Source: an uncultured Chloroflexia bacterium
GTDB lineage: Bacteria; Chloroflexota; Anaerolineae; CG2-30-64-16
Direction of reading: 5' to 3'
DNA length: 64,000 nt
NCBI GenBank assembly: GCA_963841825.1
Contig: CAWJEL010000034.1
Location: forward strand, 374-64,373
Positions 6,173 to 56,408 of this stretch are shown here, one piece after another (within the stretch, counting starts at the first letter, position 1; each line of letters begins with the position of its first letter). A program made the translations under genes and the position numbers. Under the pieces are notes generated by a model. The model worked only from the letters and a program-made list of their open reading frames with translations, made no database searches and had not been told where the DNA came from.

Positions 6173-7573
6173 TTAGATCCTGTCGAAGTCTACCCCGAGC
6201 AGGGTCGCGATCTTCTCCACTGTACCAGCCCAATGGCCGTAGGCCAGGGCCTGGTGATGCGAGCCGCCGGCCAGGCTGTAGCGCGTCAGGAAGTCAGCGA
6301 GCGGCGCGGTGGGCGCGAACTTGTAGTGCGGGCGGCCCATGTCGAGGACGTATGGGAAATCCACCACCTGACCCTCAGTCACCACCAATTTCAGCCTGCC
6401 TCCTGGCCCCGTGACCAGGCTGACCAGGGTGACGTCCCCCGGTTGCAGGCTGAAGGCCAGCAGCAATGGCGCGACACGCAGATCCACCAGGCCCAGGGTG
6501 CTCCGCAGCGCCCAGACCGGCTCGTCCTTGCGGGCCATCGTCCAGTTCCCCTCACCCATATGCATCATCAGGACCGCGTTGTGGGCGAAATCCATGGTGA
6601 ACATCTCGGTGAAGTTGGCTGAGCCGGCCAACTCCCGCATCATGGCCACCGCAGCAGAGCTCGTCGCATCGCCTTCGCCGCCGAAACCGTAGCCCTCGCC
6701 CATCAGCTTGGCGGCGGCCAGGAAGGGCAGCGTGTCCAGCCAGCTCTCCTCGCCGACGGCCACAAAGTGAAAGGTGAAGCCCTGCAGTTGCCGCTCCTGC
6801 AGGATTTTGCGCAGGCCCCATTCCAGCCGGGAGCTGGCCGCGTGCTCTTCTTCGGTGATGCCATCCTGGAAACGGAAGTTCTGCCGGTCGAACGCCATCT
6901 GGGCGGCGACTTCTTCCTGGGGCGCGGCTTTGGCGCGTTCGGCCAGGCTGCGCATGGCGATCCGCCGCACTTCCACGCCCATCTGGCTGAGGAACGCGGT
7001 GTCGTCCAGGCCAAAATCGCCCATCCCCTCCATGGGATAGCCGATCAGCCCGATCTGCATCTGGCGCAGGAAGCGGATCGTGCGCGCGGCGTCGCACCAC
7101 GCTTTGACCTCGGCCTGGGTCGCCGCGTCCTGGTAATGGCCGGTGACGATTTGAAATGCGCGGCCGGCGCGCAGGAGCACGTTGGCCAGGTCCTGCACGC
7201 CGTGCATGCCGTGGTTAAAGGTGGTATCGTCCGATGACGTATCGGCTGTGACCCCCTCCAAGCGCTGGGTGTTGTAGAGCAGGATAGGCAGACGCGTGCG
7301 GACCAGCCCAGGCAGTGCGATGTGGCTGGGCGCATAGGTCAGCAGCACCACGATGATCAGGTCTTTCCCATCGCGCTCGAATCCGGCGATGGCTTCATCC
7401 ACTGCCGCGCGGGTGTTACAGACGCCGGGGAAATCGACCTCGGCAAACGGCGCCAATGTCGTTGCCAGCTCCGAGGCGAAGCCGGCCATCTGCGGCTTCA
7501 GCTCAGGCCAACGATCGTAGAGTTCCAGCATCAGGCCCAACAGGCCGATCCGGGCCTTGGTTGTCTCAGCCAT
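6173..7573 (-). CDS. L-arabinose isomerase family protein
   Basis: 466 aa. The blocks VTGHYQD, GYGFGGEGD and AGGSHHQALAYG match conserved AraA blocks as I recall them. Confidence 0.8.
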   Translation of the reverse strand: MAETTKARIGLLGLMLELYDRWPELKPQMAGFASELATTLAPFAEVDFPGVCNTRAAVDEAIAGFERDGKDLIIVVLLTYAPSHIALPGLVRTRLPILLYNTQRLEGVTADTSSDDTTFNHGMHGVQDLANVLLRAGRAFQIVTGHYQDAATQAEVKAWCDAARTIRFLRQMQIGLIGYPMEGMGDFGLDDTAFLSQMGVEVRRIAMRSLAERAKAAPQEEVAAQMAFDRQNFRFQDGITEEEHAASSRLEWGLRKILQERQLQGFTFHFVAVGEESWLDTLPFLAAAKLMGEGYGFGGEGDATSSAAVAMMRELAGSANFTEMFTMDFAHNAVLMMHMGEGNWTMARKDEPVWALRSTLGLVDLRVAPLLLAFSLQPGDVTLVSLVTGPGGRLKLVVTEGQVVDFPYVLDMGRPHYKFAPTAPLADFLTRYSLAGGSHHQALAYGHWAGTVEKIATLLGVDFDRI

Positions 7574-9123
7574 TTTGGCTATCCTCCTGAACAGGGTTTG
7601 GGGATTGGGGACCGGTGACTGGTCTGGCCGTCCGGTCGATCAACGCATGACTCAGTTCCCGGTAGGTTGTGAACAGGTCGTCGTAGAGCCGTCGCACCGC
7701 AGGGTCGGGCGTCAGGCTTGTCTCGGCGCCCTGGAAGGCGGCGAAACCGGCCTGCGGGTCGCCGAAGATTCCCGACGGCCGTCCCAGCCAGGATCGCGGC
7801 CCCGCGGCTGGCGGCCTGGCTCATGGCGGGGAGCACCACCGGGATGCGCGGTCACGTCGGCCACGATCTGCGGCCAGACGTTGCTCCGGGCCGCGCCGCC
7901 GACCATCCGCAGCTCGGCCACGTCGATGCCTGCCTGGCGCATTTCGCTGATGGCCCAGCGGAGCTCGAAGGCGATGCCCTCCATCACGGCCCGGGCCATC
8001 TCGTCCCGGGTGTGGGGCAACGACAGGCCGATGAAACCGCCGCGCGCCGGTCCGAAGCCGGCAGCATGTCCGCCGGCCAACGGATAGCATAGCAGCCCGC
8101 CGGCGCCCGGCGCCGCGCGCGCCACCCCGGCGTTGATGGCCGCGTAAAGATCGGCGCGGTCTTCGCCGGCCGCGCGCTCGCGCCAGACGTTGTCGATCAG
8201 CCATTCCAGGGACGAGCCAACCGCCCCGATGGAGCGCATGGCGCCCCAGATTCCGTCCAGCACGTGCCGGCCGATCGCGGTCCCGCTGCGCAGGCCCACC
8301 TCGAGGTCATCGACCACGGCCAACACCACCCAGGCCGTGCCGCACGAGAGCATCACCTTGCCGGGCTGCATGACGCCCGTGCCGACCGCTGCGCAATATT
8401 GATCGTGCGCGCCGTTGGCGACGGGCAACCCCACAGGCAGGCCGGTCGCAGCGGCAGCCTCGGCGTTCAACGTGCCCACCAGGTGGCCCGCCGGGTGCAT
8501 GGGGGACAACTGGTCGCGCCGGACGCCCACCAGCGCCAACAGGCGTTCGTCCCAGTCGCCGGTGGCGATGCTGAAGAGTTGGGTGATGCCGGCGTCCGTT
8601 GGATTCATACACAGCCTGCCGGTCAGGCGCAGGCCGATGAAATCGTTGACGAACAGGTAGTGGCGCGCGGCCGCGTAGAGTTGGGGGGCGATTGTCTCTG
8701 AGCCAGCCGATGTGTTGGAGCGGCAGCGCATCCTGCAAGGGCCAGCCGGTCGTCGTGCGGATGAACTCGGCCCCGACCTGCGCTCGCACCGACCGCAGCC
8801 TGCGTGGCGCCCCGCGTATCCATCCAACTAATGGCGTTGTAAAGGGGGGTCCCGGCGGCATCGACCGGAATCGTCGTGCCCCCCTGCGATGACTGCGCCA
8901 GGCCCAGCACCCGGTCGTCCGGGTCAAGCTGGCCGGCAACGGCGCGCAGCACCTCCACGACGGCGCGCCACAACGCCTCAGGGTCTTGCTCCACCCAACC
9001 ATACCCCGGCGTGATCAGGCCGTAGCCTGAGCTGGCCTCTGCGAGCGCAACGCCAGTCAGATCGAATGCCACGGCCTTGGTGGCCGTTGTGCCTACGTCG
9101 AGCCCGATCAGGATATCTGTCAT
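7566..9123 (-). pseudogene. FGGY-family carbohydrate kinase (xylulokinase-like), 4 frame breaks
   Basis: The N-terminus ILIGLDVGTTATKAVAFD, a middle block (AQVGAEFIRTTTGWPLQDALPLQHIGWLRDNRP), then CGTAWVV...MVGGAARSNVWPQIVADV and the C-terminus VLPAMSQAASRGAAILAG...LYDDLFTTYRELSHAL lie in successive frames. Breaks are near 8810, 8700, 7846 and 7769. The stop overlaps the araA-like start (ATGGCTGA). Confidence 0.8.
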
Positions 9124-10215
9124 AATAGCACGTTTTGCTTGTCAGGGTGCGGCAGAGGCAGGGCGCCGTGCCGTAAGAGCGCCTGCGAGATCGTGGAGAG
9201 GCTGCCGCGCCAGGCATTCTCAGGCATATCCTCTGTGATGCCGATCAGAAACCGGTCGCCGGGTGCTGCCTCGCTCAGAATACGGAGCGTCTCGGCCCGG
9301 ACTATCTCTTCCGATTCCAGGTGGACCGACGAGGGGAAATTGATCCAGAGCACCTTGTCCGCCCAAGCGGCCCGCGCCTGGGCGATCGTCACGTCGCAGG
9401 TTGGCACAGGCGTGAACGCTTCGACAACGTCCAGCCGGCAGCGGCCGACAGCCTCGACCAGCGTGCTCATGTTGGCGTCCAGATGGCAGGCCGCCAGCTT
9501 GCCGCTCTCGTGGACCGCGTCAGCAAACGCATTCAAACAGGGCACGTAGTACTGCTCAAAGCGCTTCAGTCCGACCACGTCCTGGTGGATATTGCCGCCG
9601 TAGATCAGCAGTTCGGCCGGGGAGGCCGCGGCCACCCGGTACATCTCGCGCTGGCTCGCGACCAGCAGCTCGTAGAGCCCAAGCAGGCGGTCGGGCTGAC
9701 GCCGTAGGTCCAGGCTGAAACGCTCGATGCCCAGCCACTCGATGAGCAGTTTGTTCATGGAGGTATACCCGGTGTTGCCGATCACGTAACCGTCCTCGCC
9801 CAAGCCGCTCTTCGGCGAGGCGAAAGGCCTCATAATTGGGCACGTACCGGGTGTCGCGCACCATGAACTCCAGCACGCGGTAGTCGTCCGGTTCCTTGAG
9901 GTAGAACTCCTTGGTGAACCAACTGGTGCCGTAACTGGGATCGAGCGCTTTGACCGCGTGTACCTCGCCGACGGGGGTCCGCACCGTCTCGGCCAGCATG
10001 CGCATGCCCGCGCAGTAGTATTCCCGGGTGACGACCTCCACGTTCGGCATCTCGACCCGGTAGACCGGGACGCGTTCGACGACGGCCACGCCTTCGTTGC
10101 GCAGGCGGCGCTCCACGTCGCCGCGCGGGAACATGAGCCAGTAGACGCTGAACGGCACCCGGTCGGCCCACTCCCCGTGCAGGGCCGCGCGAATCCTGGC
10201 TCGCGGCGTCAGCAT
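9120..10215 (-). CDS. URO-D (uroporphyrinogen decarboxylase / MtaA-CmuA) family protein, one frame break at 9799-9801
   Basis: The N-part MLTPRARIRAALHGEWADRVPF...AFRLAEERLG joins GEDGYVIGNTGY...VVEAFTPVPTCD...FLIGITEDMPENAW after a G3/C3 run. Confidence 0.75.
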
Positions 10216-13285: not shown

Positions 13286-13423
13286 TTGTCACGGCTTTGC
13301 CGTGAGCGTGGTCCCTTCTCGTTACGGTGTGACGCCAGCGAAGAATCTCCTTGCCGCAACGAGACCCTTCGCTGGATTGCCGCGGCAACGCACTTCACGG
13401 GACCAACCCGCTCAGGGTGACAA
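13286..13423. repeat. MITE-like inverted-repeat element, family 1 (copy A, divergent termini)
   Basis: TTGTCAC...TGAGCG terminus and CGCTCAGGGTGACAA terminus. The internal hairpin is CCAGCGAAGAATCTC...GAGACCCTTCGCTGG. Related copies lie at 32796, 46886 and 59506. Confidence 0.7.
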
Positions 13424-46811: not shown

Positions 46812-46885
46812 GTTCGTGTTCTCCTCCTGCGCTGGTTGCTGGAAGGCAGGGGGGCGTTCGGTTTGACTTCGGCCATTGATGAAAA

Positions 46886-47020
46886 TGTCATGCTGAGCGG
46901 GTTAACGAGTCAACCTTGGTCACGGCGAGACCCCAGCGAAGCATCTCGTACCGCCAATGAGACCCTTGACTGGCGATTCGTCGCACCGTGCTTCGTGTTG
47001 TTAACCCGTTCAGGGTGACA
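46886..47020. repeat. MITE-like element family 1 (copy C, best-preserved termini)
   Basis: TGTCATGCTGAGCGGGTTAAC ... GTTAACCCGTTCAGGGTGACA (18 of 21 complementary), with internal CCAGCGAAGCATCTC...GAGACCCTTGACTGG. Confidence 0.75.
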
Positions 47021-47075
47021 GAAATGGCCCATCTCGCGCCCAACGACCCACTGGTTACTGATCACTGATTACTCG

Positions 47076-48146
47076 TCACTCGCGCCACCGATAATCCCGC
47101 GCCGCCTGACACATAGCCACTACGTTCTCCGGCGGGGTGTCACCCTGCACGTTGTGCGCGGCGGCCACCACATAGCCGCCGTTACGGCCCAAGATGTCGA
47201 TGATGCGCGTCGTCTCCCGATAGACCTGTTCCGGCGTCCCGTGGGGCAGCAGCTCCTGCTCGTCGATGCCGCCGTGAAATGAGAGCCGATCACCGAACGC
47301 CTCGAAAAGGGCTTCCGGGTTCATGCCGGCCGCCTGGGGCTGGATCGGGTCCAGTAGATCCAGCCCGACCTCGATCAGGTCGGGGATGACGGGCACGAGC
47401 GAGCCGCATGAATGATAAAAAGTCTTGAACCCGAGCGACTTAAAGGTGCCGATAAGCCGCCCGGTGTAGGGCTTGATGTGCCGGCGCCAGAGGGTGGGGT
47501 TGAGCATCATGCCGCGCTGGGTGCCGATGTCCCCGCCGGTACCGATGATGTCGATACGGTCGCCCGCCACATCCAGCACGCGCAGCGCGCGCAGCCGATA
47601 GTATTCTTCGACGTGCCGGCAGATGGCTTCGGCGATCTCCGGCTGCTGGCGCAGGTCGATGAGGAACTGTTCCAACCCCCGCAGGTACCACGGCGTTTCG
47701 AAGGCGCCCCCGGCGAAGAACATGATCGCCCGGCGGCCGGCCGCGTGCTCCTTCTCGATCAGCCGCGGCATGGCCGAGTAATCCCACCACTCCAGGCTCG
47801 GCCAATCGTACGCCTCGATATCCGCCACCGTCTTGCAGTCGGCCAGCGGATGGCCGTCCCACTCGTAGTAGGTGTTGAACTCGGTCTCCACTTTGCGGAT
47901 GCGGCAGCCCCAGAAGTCGACCCCTTCGCTGCCCAAGGGAGCCGCTGACCGCCCGGCCGGGCCGATGAACGGCAGGCCGACCCGGCGCATATCGACATCC
48001 AGCAAGTCCAGCACGGCGCTGTCGGAGGTCGCGCCGAGGTAGGCCCGCAGCGCGGCCATTGCTTCCGGGGTGCATGTCAGATCGAGCGCCGGACGGTCGG
48101 GCCGTCGCCGCTCCGTCGCGGCGAGAACTCGTTCACGACTATTCAT
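47076..48146 (-). CDS. URO-D family protein
   Basis: 356 aa with MNSRERVLAATERR, IIGTGGDIGTQRG, VIPDLIEVGLDLLDPIQ and GGYVVAAAHN. Confidence 0.85.
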   Translation of the reverse strand: MNSRERVLAATERRRPDRPALDLTCTPEAMAALRAYLGATSDSAVLDLLDVDMRRVGLPFIGPAGRSAAPLGSEGVDFWGCRIRKVETEFNTYYEWDGHPLADCKTVADIEAYDWPSLEWWDYSAMPRLIEKEHAAGRRAIMFFAGGAFETPWYLRGLEQFLIDLRQQPEIAEAICRHVEEYYRLRALRVLDVAGDRIDIIGTGGDIGTQRGMMLNPTLWRRHIKPYTGRLIGTFKSLGFKTFYHSCGSLVPVIPDLIEVGLDLLDPIQPQAAGMNPEALFEAFGDRLSFHGGIDEQELLPHGTPEQVYRETTRIIDILGRNGGYVVAAAHNVQGDTPPENVVAMCQAARDYRWRE

Positions 48147-48188
48147 GGATGGCCTCCTCCCTTCGGGAAGCTTGAAGTTGGAAGCTGC

Positions 48189-49337
48189 TCAAAGCTGGAT
48201 GCGAACCCAGCGAACGCTCAGAGATTGTGAGTCGCCGGCATAGAACGCGGCAAAGACCGTGCCATCCGGGAGCAGGCCCGGCTCGACGTGCCCGAAGTTC
48301 CAGAGTCCCATGTCGGCGTAGTAATCAGTGAAGCCGCGCTTGCCGTCCACGCCGGCCTGAGTCCCTGCCGCGTGCTCGTAAAAGACCAACTCGTCCGCCA
48401 CATCCCAGCTCTTCCCGAAATCGAGGCTGAGCACAGCCCGCAGAGAAGGCGGCCAGTGCCGGTGGACGTAGACACACAGGACACGATCACCAGGAAGGAT
48501 GAGCGGCCGCGGGATCTGCCCGGCAAAACCGGCGTCGGTCGGATACGTCCACATCTTGCCGTCCGGTGTCCCCCAGGCGATGTGCGCGTTCACGTCCTGC
48601 TGCGCCGCGCGATCGTGCGTCCAGAACATGCCGACCAGCCGGCCGCTACCCGGGTCGACGGCCAGGCGTTCGTCCCAGAATAACAGCCGGTTCGCGGGGT
48701 CATGGGCTACGACAATGGATGGCTCGAAGGTATGGCCGCCATCGTGCGAGATGGAGAGGATGGCGGAGTGCTCACCCACGCTCGTGTCGTCGTAGCTCTT
48801 CCAGGCCTCGCTCACCACGGCGATCGTATGCTCCGCTTTTCCGGGCATACTGCCGTCAGCCAAGAGCAGGGGCGCGCCCATCAGCGCGACGGACGGGAAC
48901 GGCCGCGTGTCCACCTCCCGCCGGTTGGCCCACGTGCGGCCATCGTCGAACGAGTCCATCAGGAAGATGCGGTTCGGCAGCGTGCCCGTCGTTTCGGGGT
49001 TGATCATGGGCTTGCCCGCTGAACGGTCGAGCCACCAGAACGCGCCGAGCAGATGCCCCGGCGCCAGCTCCGTCACACGGCCGTGGTGCCACGATCCCAG
49101 CTTGCCATCGATCGTCAATGGCTCCAACCCGTCGAGGATGGTTTTCCAGGTGCGGCCGCTGTCCGCACTGAGGCGCATAAGCACGTTCTCGTCCGGAGCC
49201 TCCTTGGCGCTGCCCGCGTGGAACGCCACCAGGATGCGGCCGTCAGACAGAACCGTCGTGTTCGTGAAAGCGCAGAACCGCCGATAGGGCGGCGCCGATG
49301 CCGCATCGTAGATGATGCCCTGATCCAGGATCCTCAC
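48189..49337 (-). CDS. BNR/Asp-box beta-propeller (sialidase-like), no signal peptide
   Basis: The GTG start ([12 protein letters not shown]) follows GGAGG. It is colinear with 31559-32713 and carries [24 protein letters not shown] and SLDFGKSW. Confidence 0.8.
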
Positions 49338-49350
49338 AGCTCTCCCCTCC

Positions 49351-49462
49351 TCACGCATCACGTATCACGTATCACGTATCACGCATCACGTATCACGCAT
49401 CACGTATCACGCATCACGTATCACGTTTCACGCATCACGTATCACGTATCACGCATCACGTA
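49351..49462. repeat. Heptamer tandem array (TCACGYA)x16
   Basis: Sixteen contiguous 7-bp units counted base by base. The array abuts the SD of the BNR gene and encodes the last 4 codons plus the stop of the upstream small gene. Confidence 0.95.
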
Positions 49463-49772
49463 TCACCCTCTCCAGCAGAAAGACGACCGGTCGATAGCCA
49501 TCCGTGCAGCAGGTGACGAACATCTCCTGCCCGCCTCTGGCGATGCCGTACACCAGCTTTTGGATGTCGGCCCACGCCCAGCCGCAGAAGCCCTCCGGCA
49601 TGGCCCACGGCGCGTCGCCTGACACCTCGAATCGCTGGCCGATCTCGAAATGCTTGCACTCCGTCCAGATGTCAGGGTTAGCCGCGTATTTGGCGACGAA
49701 CTCCTGGTGGAAGTGTTTCTTGAGCACGGTGATGCGCACGGGATGTTTCTCGACGGTGAAGTTTTCGCTCAT
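49449..49772 (-). CDS. Small Cys-containing protein, TIGR04076-like
   Basis: 107 aa with [23 protein letters not shown] and [18 protein letters not shown], which resemble the TIGR04076 family as I recall it. Confidence 0.65.
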
Positions 49773-49804
49773 GACCGCTGCCTTTTCTGGAATTCAAATG
49801 GCCG

Positions 49805-51226
49805 CTACGCGCCCAACTTCCGGTACTCGCCGGCAAAATAACGCCGGATTCGCTCCTGAACCGCCTCGCTGTGCGGCGACCGGGCGCTTGCCGCGATCTG
49901 CTCGGCGCGCTGGTGGGCGCGCGTCAGGAGCGAGGGCGGATTCGCCTCGCTGCCGCCGGTGTAGTCAAGCAGCTCGTGCGCGAAGAACTCGTCCGACCGC
50001 AGGAAGCGCAGGGTCAGGTCGTCTATCAGGAAGTTGCCGCCGGGGCCGGCGCGCTCGATGTTCTCCACGCCCAGCCGCAGCTCATCCATGCGGATCCCGC
50101 GCTGCAGATATTGTGCCGACGCCAGCCAGGCGGTGTGGATCAGCATCATCTCGGCCGACATGCCGATGGCGTTGTAGGTCGAGCCGATGCCGGCCAGCAG
50201 GTGGGCGCCGGAATTGAGCGCGCTCAGCATGAAAAGCATCCCCTCAGCCCCGTTCTGCTGATCGTAGCGGTGGGTCATGGTGCCGCCGCATTCGGCGGCC
50301 ACCGGCATGCGGTACGCCTTGCCGAGCTGGACCGCGGCGGTCTTCCACAGCACCTTGTCCAACGTGTAATACATGTCGTGGGTGGATCGCATGTGCCCCA
50401 CCGAGAGGCCCGACGCATATAGGTAGGGATTGCCGCGCCGCGCCGCCTGCGTCAACGCAGCCATGCCGATGACCTCCACATTGCTCTGGAGCAATGTGCC
50501 AGCCATACTGTACGGGCTGGTCATGCCTGCGATCGGGCAGACCGTGGGGACGACGGGGAAGCCGCGGCTGCACGCGTCCAGCAGGAAGGCGACATTCAAA
50601 TCGGAGCAGGCCAGCGGGCTGAGCGATCCCACGGCGACCGTCATCGACGCGCCGCCGGGATCGCGGCCGTCGAACATGATTTCGGCGAGCGCCAGGTAGT
50701 GGCGATAGCGGATCATGTCGGTGGCCATGTTGTAGAAGTGCTTGGCGTGTCCCAGCGCCCACGCCTCCATGGCCCGCAGGCTGGAGATGGGCTCCGGCAC
50801 ATCGGTCAGCGGAAAGTCCATCAGGCTGCTGGCGACCACCATGGGCAGCGCCTGGACGATCGTGGTGTGCCGGCGCAGATCATCGAGGCATGGCCGGCGC
50901 GGCTCGCCGGTTTCGTAATCGATGATCCACGGATCGGTGACGATGGCCAGGCAACCGGGCGGCGCGGCGTTGTCGCCCACCACATGCCGCAGGCCGCCGG
51001 CGCCCGCGATGGTGTAGGTCGCGGGCACCGCCGCCAGCAACTCCCGCAGCACGGGCCGCGGGAAGCGGACGCGGCCCTCGGCCTCGTCCACCCGAGCGCC
51101 GGCCGCGCGACAGCGCGCCAGGAGTTCCGGGTGCGTCACGCCCAGGCCGGTCCGTTCGAGGATCTCCTCGGTCTTCTCCATGATCAGGGCAACCTGGCCT
51201 TCGGTAAGCGCTTCGGACAGAATCAT
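49805..51226 (-). CDS. MttB superfamily protein, non-pyrrolysine
   Basis: 473 aa from MILSEALTEGQ (after AAGGAG) as one uninterrupted ORF. It shows IMEKTEEILERTGLGV, GFPVVPTVCPIAGMTSPYSMAGTLLQ and ERAGPGGNFL. Confidence 0.8.
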   Translation of the reverse strand: MILSEALTEGQVALIMEKTEEILERTGLGVTHPELLARCRAAGARVDEAEGRVRFPRPVLRELLAAVPATYTIAGAGGLRHVVGDNAAPPGCLAIVTDPWIIDYETGEPRRPCLDDLRRHTTIVQALPMVVASSLMDFPLTDVPEPISSLRAMEAWALGHAKHFYNMATDMIRYRHYLALAEIMFDGRDPGGASMTVAVGSLSPLACSDLNVAFLLDACSRGFPVVPTVCPIAGMTSPYSMAGTLLQSNVEVIGMAALTQAARRGNPYLYASGLSVGHMRSTHDMYYTLDKVLWKTAAVQLGKAYRMPVAAECGGTMTHRYDQQNGAEGMLFMLSALNSGAHLLAGIGSTYNAIGMSAEMMLIHTAWLASAQYLQRGIRMDELRLGVENIERAGPGGNFLIDDLTLRFLRSDEFFAHELLDYTGGSEANPPSLLTRAHQRAEQIAASARSPHSEAVQERIRRYFAGEYRKLGA

Positions 51227-51246
51227 GCGTGTGTCTCCTTTGGGTG

Positions 51247-51377
51247 TTGGTAGATTGGTAGATTGGTAGGTTGGTAGGTTGGTAGGTTGGTGCATCGGAA
51301 ACCGAGTCTACCCGTTTACCAATCCACCAGTTTACCAATCCACCAGTTTACCAATCTACCAGTTTACCAATCACCAG
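51247..51377. repeat. Octamer array (TTGGTAGR)x5 plus 4 copies of 16-mer CAGTTTACCAATCYAC in opposed polarity
   Basis: The 8-mers lie at 51247-51286 and the 16-mers at 51312-51374. The TACCAA core of the 16-mer is the complement of the 8-mer core TTGGTA. Confidence 0.9.
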
Positions 51378-51404
51378 ATACCGCGAGAAAGCCGGGCCTA
51401 CACT

Positions 51405-52421
51405 TCAACGATCCGTCATCCCCAGCAACCGCCGAATGTTGTGGCAGAAGATGTCCTCCACCTGGCTGTCGGTGAGCCGGCAGTGCCAGGCGGCCTGCTT
51501 GAGCACGCGCAGCGACTCCAGACCGACGAAGACCGGCTGCAACGGCTGAAACGAGGCGGTCTTCCAGTCCAACGTATCGTCGTAGAGCCAGATGAACCCG
51601 TCGCCGATCGCCACGCAGCGGCCGCGCAGGTGGCTCACCGGGAAATCGGTGCCGTAGAGCAGCTTGTCGTGCCCCAGGATTTCGATGATCGCCTCGCACG
51701 CGCCGATGTCGGCCACGGCGGACATGTCACACCAGAGGTTTGGCAGTCCGCCCAGGGCAGTCAAACCTTTGATGGTGTGATACGGATTGAACCCGCGCGC
51801 CGCGTGGGCCAGGATGAGTTGCATGTCCGGGTAGGTCTCGCAGTAGTGGCGGATCCAATGCTGGTTGGAGGGATCCGCAACCGCCCGTGCCTTGACCATG
51901 TGCAGGGTGATGCAGAGCCCCTCCTCGTGCGCTACTTTAACCTGTGCTTCCGGCAGATAATCAGGAATGTCGGCCTCCCACGATGGCATCCTGCTGCTCT
52001 GCACGTGATAACACTTCAGCCCCGCCAGGCCGAGACGGCGAACCTCGCCGCGCACGTATTCGGGGTCCATAGCGGGCGAGATCAGCATGGCGCCGCGCCA
52101 GCCGGGGTTGGCGGCGGCCTCGGCCGCGGTGAACGCGTTCTGGGCCTCGACCTGCTCACCGAGCGCGCCGACCGCGCCGGGCAGGATCAGGCCGCCAGCG
52201 ACGCGACGACCGGGCAACAGCTCGGCCACGCGCTGCTGGTAGGCTGACAGGTCGATGACATCTTCCTCCAACTGCTGGAACGCGTCGTAGCCTGTCGGGG
52301 GCAGGTGCGACTTCGCCCAGAGGTGCATGTGGGCGTCACAGATAGTGTCGGGAACGAAGCTGTCCAGCTCGCGCCGGAAAAGCTCGAGATCGGCCTCAGT
52401 GGCGTGTGAAACGATAGGCAT
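51405..52421 (-). CDS. Amidohydrolase_2-type protein
   Basis: 338 aa from MPIVSHATEADLELF (after GGAGG), with ICDAHMHLW and LLYGTDFPV. Confidence 0.8.
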   Translation of the reverse strand: MPIVSHATEADLELFRRELDSFVPDTICDAHMHLWAKSHLPPTGYDAFQQLEEDVIDLSAYQQRVAELLPGRRVAGGLILPGAVGALGEQVEAQNAFTAAEAAANPGWRGAMLISPAMDPEYVRGEVRRLGLAGLKCYHVQSSRMPSWEADIPDYLPEAQVKVAHEEGLCITLHMVKARAVADPSNQHWIRHYCETYPDMQLILAHAARGFNPYHTIKGLTALGGLPNLWCDMSAVADIGACEAIIEILGHDKLLYGTDFPVSHLRGRCVAIGDGFIWLYDDTLDWKTASFQPLQPVFVGLESLRVLKQAAWHCRLTDSQVEDIFCHNIRRLLGMTDR

Positions 52422-52434
52422 GATTCCTCCAGAG

Positions 52435-52507
52435 GACGATGGACGATGGACCATTGACGATGGACCATTGACCATGGACCATCGTCGGTCGTCCATCGTC
52501 CATCGTC
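52435..52507. repeat. Perfect 17-bp inverted repeat built from GACGATGGAC-type units
   Basis: GACGATGGACGATGGAC (52435-52451) pairs with GTCCATCGTCCATCGTC (52491-52507). The interior is also self-complementary. The repeat starts 4 nt upstream of the SD. Confidence 0.9.
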
Positions 52508-52520
52508 AGTCGTCAACACC

Positions 52521-53487
52521 CTACTTCGTCGGCCCCTGCCACTCCCCCATGTCCGCCGGCCACGTACCGGGGTTGAGCTGATTGTGGTCGCTCACCGTGA
52601 CCTGCCGGATGGCCGTGATCAGCGCCGGCGTCAATGGTCCGCCATTGGCGAAAGCCAGGGCGGCTTCCAATTCCTCGCTGCGGGCCGTGCCAACCAACGC
52701 GGTCGTCACGGCGGGATGCGTCAGGACGAAACGGTAGGCCATTTCGGGCAGGCTGCACCCTTCCCCATCCGCCAGGCGGCTCAGTTGTGCGATCGCCGAC
52801 CGCAGCTCGGCCAACTGCTCCGGGAGGAGGGCGAAGCGATGTGTCAACACCCCCCGCAGCAACACAGAGCGCACGATGACGCCCACGTCCTGCTGCTGTG
52901 CCCGCGGCAGCACAAGTTCCTCCAGTGACCTGTCGGCCAGGTTGTACGCGATCTGGAGGGTATCGTAGCCGCCGTCCTCCAGAGCAGCGAGCGGCGCCGT
53001 CTTCGCCGTAAGTTGACGCGCCGATGAACCGCACCTGGCCGGCCCGTTGGACCTCCCGGGCCGCCGCCAGCACCCGGCCGCTTGTGATCACATCGGCCGG
53101 CGCCCAGTGAAGCTGAAGCAGGTCAATGACATCCGTTTGCAGCATCCGCAGGCTCTCGGCAATGGAAGCCTTAACTTGTTCGCGCAGCTCCCCATCCGAC
53201 TGGCCCTCTTCGCGGATCGGTGCGAGCTTGCTGGCCAGGATATACGCATTCCGTCTGCCCTTGAGCGCCCGGCCGATAACCTCTTCGCTGGCGCCGTACG
53301 CGCGGGCGGTGTCGATGAAATTGACGCCGAGGTCGAGCGCCCGGTTGAGCAGCCGCGCAGCGTGCTCTTCCGGTGGCCGTAGGTGCTCGCCGGCGACCGG
53401 CACCCCATAGTCCAGGCCGATCTCCACCGTGCCGAGCGAGATTTCTGAGACTTCCAGTTCCGTGCGACCCAAACGACGATAATTCAT
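52521..53487 (-). CDS. Aldo/keto reductase, one frame break near 52990
   Basis: MNYRRLGRTELEVSEISLGT and NFIDTARAYG. The C-terminal half (LAALEDGGYDTLQIAYNL...VIVRSVLLRGVL) lies in the frame of ORF 52521-52913. Confidence 0.8.
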
Positions 53488-56318: not shown

Positions 56319-56408
56319 CCTTCGATCCTTCGATCCTTCGACCCCGCTCAGGACAGGCTTCGCTCAGGACAGGCTCCGCGCTGGAGAGGCTTCGCTCAGG
56401 GCAGGCGC
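56319..56408. repeat. Short tandem repeats: (CCTTCGAY)x3 then 4 degenerate 16-mers CGCTCAGGACAGGCTY
   Basis: The 8-mers lie at 56319-56342 and the 16-mers at 56345-56408. The last copies encode the C-terminus and stop of gene 56364-57165. Confidence 0.8.

Follow-up and report, generated by a model that had tools for sequence, protein, structure and literature searches.

We investigated short tandem repeats in a minus-strand gene string within a 64,000-nucleotide (nt) stretch of DNA from an uncultured Chloroflexia bacterium (GenBank assembly GCA_963841825.1, contig CAWJEL010000034.1, positions 374 to 64,373), hereafter referred to as the window. Three intercistronic spacers of this gene string hold arrays of 7- or 8-base-pair (bp) units, designated (a), (b), and (c), which a first-pass annotation had singled out for lying against the Shine-Dalgarno (SD) sequences of the downstream genes. 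Tandem Repeats Finder (TRF) and inspection of the sequence recovered all three where that annotation had placed them, with none in a simulated control. All three belong to a population of ordinary arrays present throughout the genome and are not a special device of this operon; orientation within this population follows a common rule relative to gene ends. Pfam and NCBIfam matches for the gene string (Aldo_ket_red, Amidohydro_2, MTTB, TIGR04076, and BNR_2) bear out the gene names initially proposed, namely, aldo-keto reductase, amidohydrolase, MttB, BNR, and TIGR04076-like, and a search of the whole window with the Rfam 15 covariance models at the gathering score gave 0 matches. The repeats and the genes around them are as follows, with array copy numbers given as assembled, no independent contig spanning a whole array.

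47049–47080, minus strand: TCAGTRA-type heptamers (TRF), G-rich on the sense strand, overlapping or following the stop codon of an MtaA/URO-D-like gene and followed by an element resembling a miniature inverted-repeat transposable element (MITE)
48166–48187, minus strand: small array of 3 heptamers, AGCTTCC on the sense strand, of the AAGCTGG family (TRF score 30)
48189–49337, minus strand: BNR-repeat gene (BNR_2 and BNR matches), with GGAGG at 49346–49350 and a GTG start at 49335–49337
49351–49466, minus strand: array (a), 16.6 heptamers TCACGTA with 88% matches (TRF), GTGATRC on the sense strand
49449–49772, minus strand: TIGR04076-family small gene, 107 aa (NCBIfam TIGR04076, E 4e-15; translation)
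49805–51226, minus strand: MttB-superfamily methyltransferase gene (Pfam MTTB, E 6e-48), with an ATG start at 51224–51226, between arrays (b) and (a)
51246–51291, minus strand: array (b), 3' arm in the mRNA, GTTGGTAG x5.8 (TRF), CTACCAAY on the sense strand, C-rich
51310–51377, minus strand: array (b), 5' arm in the mRNA, 16-mer GATTGGTAAACTGGTG x4.3 (TRF), derived from TTGGTARA-type octamers, G-rich on the sense strand
51405–52421, minus strand: Amidohydro_2 gene (Pfam match), with GGAGG at 52426–52430 and an ATG start at 52419–52421
52434–52516, minus strand: array (c), hairpin of GACGATG/GACCATT-type heptamers (TRF)

Array (a), which is G-rich on the sense strand, takes up the entire spacer that separates the BNR gene from the TIGR04076-family gene. 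It directly adjoins the CCTCC at 49346–49350 (GGAGG on the minus strand), with 0 nt between them, and the start of the BNR gene is consistent with the tblastn alignment to relatives. The claim that this array touches the BNR GGAGG and also supplies the C-terminal codons and the stop of the small gene held when checked by sequence and translation: the open reading frame (ORF) ends ...GAG AGG GTG ATA CGT GAT GCG TGA on the minus strand, and five codons (VIRDA) together with the TGA are array units. The sense RNA of array (a) is predicted to pair with itself via UACGUG (-50.2 kcal/mol, z -3.4). At array (b), the 5' arm begins 27 nt past the amidohydrolase stop codon and the 3' arm ends 5–6 nt ahead of AAGGAG (CTCCTT at 51235–51240); the long hairpin predicted at first pass from octamers facing 16-mers was recovered in the fold of the sense RNA (-77.4 kcal/mol, z -5.7). 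In the mRNA, array (c) consists of a G-rich 5' arm (52491–52516) and a C-rich 3' arm (52434–52451), and its sense RNA folds at -58.8 kcal/mol (z -6.0). A string check confirmed that the outer arms of this array (52435–52451 and 52491–52507) form a perfect 17-bp inverted repeat, 4 nt from the GGAGG at 52426–52430 (CCTCC on the forward strand). The three spacers are not strictly consecutive, as had been stated: the 32-nt spacer between mttB and the small gene (49773–49804) has no array, and two more spacers carry arrays (48166–48187 and 47049–47080), the first of these lying between the BNR stop codon and the GGAGGAGG of the MtaA/URO-D-like gene.

To place these loci in context, we used TRF to collect every array with a unit of 7 or 8 bp and a copy number of 3.5 or more in the genome holding the window (G000; 4.83 Mb in 38 contigs, 62.8% G+C, 78% complete), with gene boundaries taken from our own crude gene caller based on codon usage and SD sequences. 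This set comprises 488 arrays (339 heptamer and 149 octamer), or ~101 per Mb, compared to 0 arrays in a 1.5-Mb first-order Markov simulation under the same thresholds, where the real genome has 152 per 1.5 Mb. Most of the arrays (348 of the 488, 71%) are intergenic, against the ~20% of the genome that is intergenic. The main families, counted as TRF arrays, are ACGCATC (47; the family of array (a)), AAGCTGG (45), AATCTACC (30; array (b)), and ACGATGG (23; array (c)), such that the units of arrays (a), (b), and (c) represent three of the four commonest families. The family of array (a) additionally forms 44 exact runs of at least 3 units elsewhere in the genome, and AAGCTGG, the family of the small array at 48166–48187, was the commonest family in an initial genome count and came second under stricter criteria. 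With a few families recurring at dozens of loci, the suggestion that these are dispersed heptamer and octamer repeats resembling the short tandemly repeated repetitive (STRR) sequences is well founded. The array flanks share no motif beyond degenerate units and, given the absence of conserved flanks, the arrays are not MITEs; MITE identity was also rejected on the grounds that conserved termini are missing and that array (a) has no insertion-site duplication. An opposed arm is detectable for only 20% of the arrays. TTTT occurs within 12 nt after the end of a hairpin arm in 1 of 97 cases, and the hairpins at (b) and (c) run into SD sequences instead, so that intrinsic terminators were discarded as an identity for these structures.

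Some arrays lie in coding sequence: 82–95 are well inside long, strongly coding ORFs of G000 (for example, C1:207307–207393, C24:43716–43792, and C10:440782–440840), where some may be in-frame loop insertions, and others, two genes fused by a stop-free array. The copy number of coding arrays showed no significant three-unit periodicity (p 0.10).

The orientation of the arrays follows one geometric rule, whereby the G-rich strand, read 5' to 3', heads into the spacer from the closest gene boundary, and arrays (a), (b), and (c) comply with it. Because the G-rich strand runs inward from the gene boundary, paired arrays take the form of hairpins composed of a G-arm, a loop, and a C-arm; at the 81 loci where two arms are opposed, the leading arm is G-rich by 78:1. 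Unpaired arrays near stop codons are G-rich on the sense strand (69:7, and 27:2 among those not overlapping an ORF), whereas unpaired arrays near start codons are C-rich on the sense strand (51:10), a difference in orientation between the two classes with a Fisher p of 9e-20. Convergent spacers also obey the rule (25:6), divergent spacers do so less strictly (16:9), and arrays within coding sequence have no strand bias (50:45). When each unit family was compared with the direction of transcription as a whole, no strand bias was found, but this null result is misleading because the opposite biases at stops and starts cancel. Local composition was rejected as the source of the orientation, given that array-free spacers show no GC skew. 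The arrays have a sharp edge on the gene side, with decayed units trailing on the inner side, and no purity gradient was detected along their length (0.71 vs 0.74 mismatches per unit). Only 26 of the 488 units contain GGG or CCC, and those of arrays (a), (b), and (c) contain none, which led us to reject G-quadruplex formation.

An exception to the polarity rule is found in the window itself, at 56319–56406 upstream of a start codon, where TCGAAGGA x3 is accompanied by the 16-mer AGCCTGTCCTGAGCGA x3.9; the octamer is G-rich on the sense strand beside the start. These arrays resemble an internal segment of a MITE-like element (CCTGCCCTGAGCG.AGTCGAAGGGG) and may have grown from local sequence.

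Such polarity could originate from a dedicated polar process, in which a break in the spacer would have its 3' ends extended with G-rich units of 7–8 nt copied from a template located elsewhere; rejoining of both extended ends would then produce a G-arm, a junction, and a C-arm, and extension of one end would leave a single array anchored at a gene boundary. This process would account for the 78:1 hairpin polarity, for the same rule in single arrays at stops and starts, and for a G-strand that starts sharply at its 5' end and finishes in irregular units at its 3' end. It would also fit the variable loops between identical arms in metagenome contigs, the recurrence of a small number of unit families at many sites that lack conserved flanks, and the clean insertion of array (a) between adjacent ancestral bases with no target duplication. 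However, no enzyme or template was identified, there is no purity gradient within the arrays, and the arrays at 56319–56406, apparently grown from a local MITE-derived segment, fit plain slippage. Moreover, the weaker rule in divergent spacers is what RNA-level selection predicts, unlike a purely geometric mechanism. Overall, we find a dedicated polar process improbable, and the same low expectation applies to the broader proposal that end-anchored addition, healing breaks in intergenic DNA and shared by Chloroflexota, Xanthomonas, and filamentous cyanobacteria and independent of G-quadruplexes, makes the arrays instead of slippage combined with selection. A reverse transcriptase was considered as the unit-adding enzyme and dismissed, as RVT_1 is absent from the array-bearing, nearly complete relatives G014 and G015, with no correlation overall.

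The position of the arrays relative to gene ends was analyzed for the 263 arrays in co-directional spacers, with uniform placement as the expectation. As many as 100 of the 263 lie at most 8 nt from the upstream stop codon or overlap it, compared to 31.5 expected. The 0–7 nt before the start codon are depleted of arrays (16 vs 31.5 expected), and the interval 8–24 nt before the start, beside the SD sequence, is mildly enriched (70 vs 51 expected). Divergent spacers, where promoters are located, are depleted as well, holding 8.8% of the arrays vs 16.2% of the intergenic bases. The genome-wide search for units and for bias relative to start codons that had been proposed at first pass thus reveals non-random placement, but with the SD-adjacent class only mildly enriched; similarly, the emphasis placed on ribosome-binding sites holds for arrays (b) and (c), which are long hairpins ending just ahead of such sites, whereas genome-wide the main association is with the upstream stop codon. 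The arrays in spacers lie in the unconstrained part of the spacer, which extends from the upstream stop codon to a conserved initiation block of roughly 20–25 nt. At locus (b), the block AYACCCrArGGAGACwCACrCATG is common to the window and to the relatives L001 and L002, and the arrays or other spacer filling end at its 5' edge. Relatives keep the initiation block without any array, and therefore SD adjacency looks like the filling of free space; what had been described as arrays abutting the SD sequence appears to be best read as free space filled up to a constrained block.

The closest relatives of the window are metagenome-assembled genomes (MAGs) of Chloroflexota/Anaerolineae, and in three orthologous loci, L001, L002, and L003, the gene order is shared, with MttB orthologues 84–88% identical. 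In L001 and L002, the junction between the small gene and the BNR gene has no spacer (GAGAGAGGAGGATGA): the stop codon lies beside the SD sequence and the junction reads GAGAGAGGAGGATGAgcc(t)GTG, which, judging from the sequence, is a coupled junction of the classical kind. The 116-bp array (a) of the window sits exactly between GAGAGG and GGAGG and converts the C-terminus LERGG* of L001 and L002 into LERVIRDA*, a clean insertion between two adjacent ancestral bases without target duplication. At locus (b), L002 has arms and a loop homologous to those of the window, with indels within the arms and fewer units; L003 has TCAGGTA/TACCTGA arms with the same polarity as in the window; and L001 contains a palindromic MITE-like element of roughly 200 nt in place of the array. 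At locus (c), L003 has a related array in the corresponding spacer.

Comparison of whole genomes reveals the same turnover on a larger scale. G001, from the same genus, has 40 arrays per Mb in a 400-kb sample, with other unit families, and among 92 orthologous spacers of G000 and G001, an array is present in 17 in G000 and in 17 in G001, with 8 occupied in both, mostly by differing units. Across 41 related genomes, (TCACGYA)x4 was found in 8, one of them from another family of the class, and (TTGGTAGR)x3 in 13, all from the same taxonomic family, the highest number of matching positions per genome being 304. Both patterns, when reversed as a control, gave ~0. These comparisons indicate that unit families last at the family level and that individual arrays turn over fast. 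The absence of array (a) from L001 and L002, together with the turnover of spacers in the congener, speaks against a function selected at specific loci.

A MITE-like palindromic element of ~130–300 nt (GTCACCCTGARCGGGT ... ACCCGCTCAG..TGACA) occupies ~46880–47010 of the window, within the spacer 46812–47075. Its terminus occurs 53 times in the genome (reversed control, 0), including near 13406 and 59696 of the window, and in the relatives the element is found at L001:4530–4680, L001:5770–5940, and L003:4630–4930, filling spacers that hold arrays in the window.

These observations bear on the possibility that the arrays are selected RNA-level devices, with hairpins that gate the downstream SD sequence, block 3' to 5' decay, or mark processing sites. 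In favor of this, the hairpins are very stable (z -5.7, -6.0, and -3.4), with 3' arms ending 0–6 nt from the SD sequence; their orientation is set relative to gene ends, co-occurrence in orthologous spacers exceeds chance, and both arms have changed jointly, with pairing kept, between the window and L002 (TTGGTAGA type) on the one hand and L003 (TCAGGTA type) on the other. There is also a precedent in the repetitive extragenic palindromic (REP) hairpins of E. coli, which stabilize upstream mRNA and lower translation when near a stop codon. However, array (a) is missing from L001 and L002, and in L001 a MITE-like element, unrelated to the array, occupies spacer (b); about half of the spacers that bear arrays have none in the congener, and the units differ. 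Furthermore, the polarity rule also applies in convergent spacers, where there is no downstream cistron, an opposed arm was detected in just 20% of the arrays, and 82–95 arrays are inside strongly supported ORFs. Selected RNA-level devices are therefore, in our assessment, an unlikely explanation, if the least unlikely of those we do not favor. The RNA-level role suggested at first pass survives in part: a strand-specific constraint is plausible, the orientation being tied to gene ends, but a locus-specific selected function is countered by the turnover.

Another suggestion was that the arrays serve as contingency loci, in which slippage by 7 or 8 bp switches expression or protein C-termini. 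Tandem units of 7–8 bp are slippage-prone, array (a) provides the C-terminus and the stop of a gene, and the copy number at locus (b) differs between the window and L002. Nevertheless, arrays (a), (b), and (c) are located after stop codons and upstream of SD sequences, not in 5' coding regions or between promoter elements, and hundreds of arrays of the same families stand beside housekeeping-type genes in all spacer types. The sense unit GTGATRC carries a TGA in every frame per 21 nt, and slippage in array (a) could swap only the last few residues, and only if the first units were involved, so that the protein can lengthen by a few residues at most and the case for the proposed switch at this locus is weak. 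No length variants were observable in the short contigs, which break at the arrays. Phase variation at arrays (a), (b), and (c) is unlikely, and contingency loci as an account of the arrays in general have very little to recommend them.

We also examined the locus in four wastewater metagenome runs (X1–X4), where all contigs covering it are short and break at the arrays, with the junctions covered and whole arrays never spanned. Two scans of metagenomes and a look-up of the exact protein gave no hits. In these runs, assembler word depth reached 7,000–9,800 on the arrays at 49351–49466 and 51246–51291 vs about 5–40 on the flanks, and hundreds of contigs join TTGGTAGR and YCTACCAA arms through differing loop sequences; accordingly, this community is very rich in these unit families and in the hairpin design. 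In the short-read relative G014, many contigs start or end within TTGGTAGR arrays (C214, C248, C257, and C269, with starts at base 1–8). Because the arrays break assemblies, array counts in fragmented MAGs are lower bounds. Breakage of the public-run contigs inside the arrays, none of which is spanned, is what could be expected if the repeats had been collapsed or invented by the assembler. Yet flank-to-array junctions are present in independent contigs of several runs, homologous arrays occupy matching spacers of independently assembled relatives, and the unit families recur in 8 of 41 and 13 of 41 other genomes with reversed controls of about 0, making an assembly artefact hardly credible.

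Taken together, the arrays are probably ordinary, fast-evolving STRR-like satellites with 7- or 8-bp units, governed by slippage growth and transcript-level filtering. They would expand and contract in place through replication slippage, with new sites seeded by a process that copies existing units, and selection on the transcript would then filter the survivors. After a stop codon, the G-rich orientation, which is C-poor and has a stop triplet in most units, would be kept; beside a ribosome-binding site, the C-rich orientation, with few start codons or SD-like words, would be kept instead. Self-folding insertions, such as opposed arms or the self-pairing array (a), might be tolerated in that the hairpin would hold both flanks together, and a terminating ribosome could still melt the base of the stem, freeing the next SD sequence. 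Tolerance of hairpins would also explain the MITE-like palindromes in the corresponding spacers of relatives. The RNA-level effect of the arrays is probably incidental; an effect on mRNA stability or translational coupling, plausible by analogy with REP elements, would likely be a by-product and not the reason for a given array.

Several findings weigh against slippage combined with transcript-level filtering. Plain slippage leaves unexplained the presence of one unit at 40–60 loci and of the same unit in several genera. The 78:1 polarity is very strong for weak selection acting on fast-turnover elements, and one polar generating mechanism would be simpler. In addition, the co-occurrence of arrays in orthologous spacers of G000 and G001 is above chance (8 vs 3.1 expected, p 0.0025), and some arrays could be retained for function.

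Loss of mismatch repair was evaluated as a general cause of the arrays and rejected, as the array-rich genomes G012 and G014 possess a MutS1-type hit. In the MutS_V search, the best score was 129 bits in G000 (MutS2-like, in a genome 78% complete) and 136 bits in G003, compared to ~270–300 bits (MutS1-type) in the other 39 relatives.

The arrays have counterparts among known repeats. The STRR heptamers of heterocystous cyanobacteria, attributed to Mazel and colleagues in 1990, reportedly comprise several intergenic families, some of which form intercistronic hairpins, with function unsettled; the cyanobacterial units include CCCCAGT, TTGGTCA, and CAACAGT. The arrays described here similarly belong to multiple heptamer families, tandem and dispersed at many intergenic sites, but they come from a different phylum and a genome of 63% G+C, include octamers, and have different main units (GTGATRC, CCAGCTT, TTGGTAGR, and GACGATG). 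Given that STRR sequences are defined by their units and host group, the arrays are an analogue of these repeats, not a member.

REP elements and bacterial interspersed mosaic elements (BIMEs) of enterobacteria are hairpin repeats located at gene 3' ends and between cistrons, many of them a few nt from a stop codon; they affect mRNA decay and translation of the upstream gene and are fixed palindromes of 20–40 nt mobilized by RAYT transposases. REPs near stop codons are also said to have been the subject of work by Liang, Rudd, and Deutscher in 2015. Unlike these elements, the arms described here are tandem units of 7–8 nt in variable number, without conserved ends or a fixed palindrome. By analogy, REP elements might be the best model for the possible action of the hairpins at (b) and (c). 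The genome contains two Y1_Tnp hits.

The closest published parallel in terms of position and polarity is provided by the G-rich heptamers GGGAATC of Xanthomonas and GGGGA(C/T)T of Nostoc/Anabaena, which are dispersed and mostly intergenic (Rehm et al. 2015, PMC4692102). These repeats favor spacers between aligned ORFs and are depleted between divergent ones; the G-rich strand is the sense strand within 50 bp of stop codons or overlapping them, and the antisense strand upstream of starts. There are 70–75 convergent pairs per genome. These rules were linked to G-quadruplexes, which four or more units can form through their G-tracts (GGG/GGGG), and raised local genome stability was reported. The intergenic preference, the depletion in divergent spacers, the strand rule at stops and starts, and the convergent pairs are all reproduced in the genome studied here. 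In contrast, the units here are not G-tract motifs (GGG or CCC in only 26 of 488), so that G-quadruplexes cannot explain the rules; many unit families coexist, including 149 octamer arrays, in a Chloroflexota host; and instead of raised local stability, there is turnover between congeners.

Within Chloroflexota, Chloroflexus aurantiacus has the species-specific 14-nt (2x7) satellites Fam_1_14_23, which are scattered genome-wide, a pattern taken by the authors as a sign of an unknown satellite "transposition", with 14.4 satellites per Mb (Subirana and Messeguer 2019, PMC6749651). That study did not analyze position or polarity; the genome examined here, of the class Anaerolineae, has ~101 arrays per Mb, under the thresholds of this analysis, and displays explicit orientation rules. 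The TAACTGA repeats of marine Beggiatoaceae are intergenic and carry stops in all three frames one way; some of them overlap an upstream stop codon, and they were proposed to play a part in translation (MacGregor 2015, PMC4679880). Those repeats differ from the arrays in consisting of a single unit in 2–6 copies, mostly pointing toward starts and often located at the expected place of the SD sequence. In the present genome, the strand that is G-rich and bears the stops is directed away from starts.

To our knowledge, no mechanism or function has been assigned to dispersed heptamer repeats, known since 1990. The dense case described here (~100 arrays per Mb) reproduces the published position and polarity rules with units that cannot form G-quadruplexes. 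Because these rules hold with few GGG- or CCC-containing units, they are independent of quadruplex formation, which removes the only structural explanation offered so far. Heptamer and octamer satellites are a known kind of repeat, and the interest of the present case lies mainly in the polarity rule without G-quadruplex potential. With the spacers of relatives empty, occupied by other units, or MITE-like, this lineage constitutes a natural comparison set for asking whether polarity arises from transcript selection or from a polar DNA process, and whether or not translational coupling is preserved by self-folding insertions. In the annotation of Chloroflexota MAGs, arrays of this type account for unusual C-termini, for ORFs that are extended or fused, and for contig breaks.

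The aldo-keto reductase gene of the window (52513–53487, minus strand) is frameshifted near 52990–53000, with Pfam positions 2–145 in a 324-aa ORF frame and 159–289 in the frame ending with the TAG at 52521–52523, representing either a pseudogene or an assembly indel; in all three relatives, this gene is kept in a single frame. In L002 (5554–5871; HGW-Chloroflexi-1), the amidohydrolase is reduced to its last ~51 codons (residues 285–335), and the downstream opposed octamer arrays are kept.

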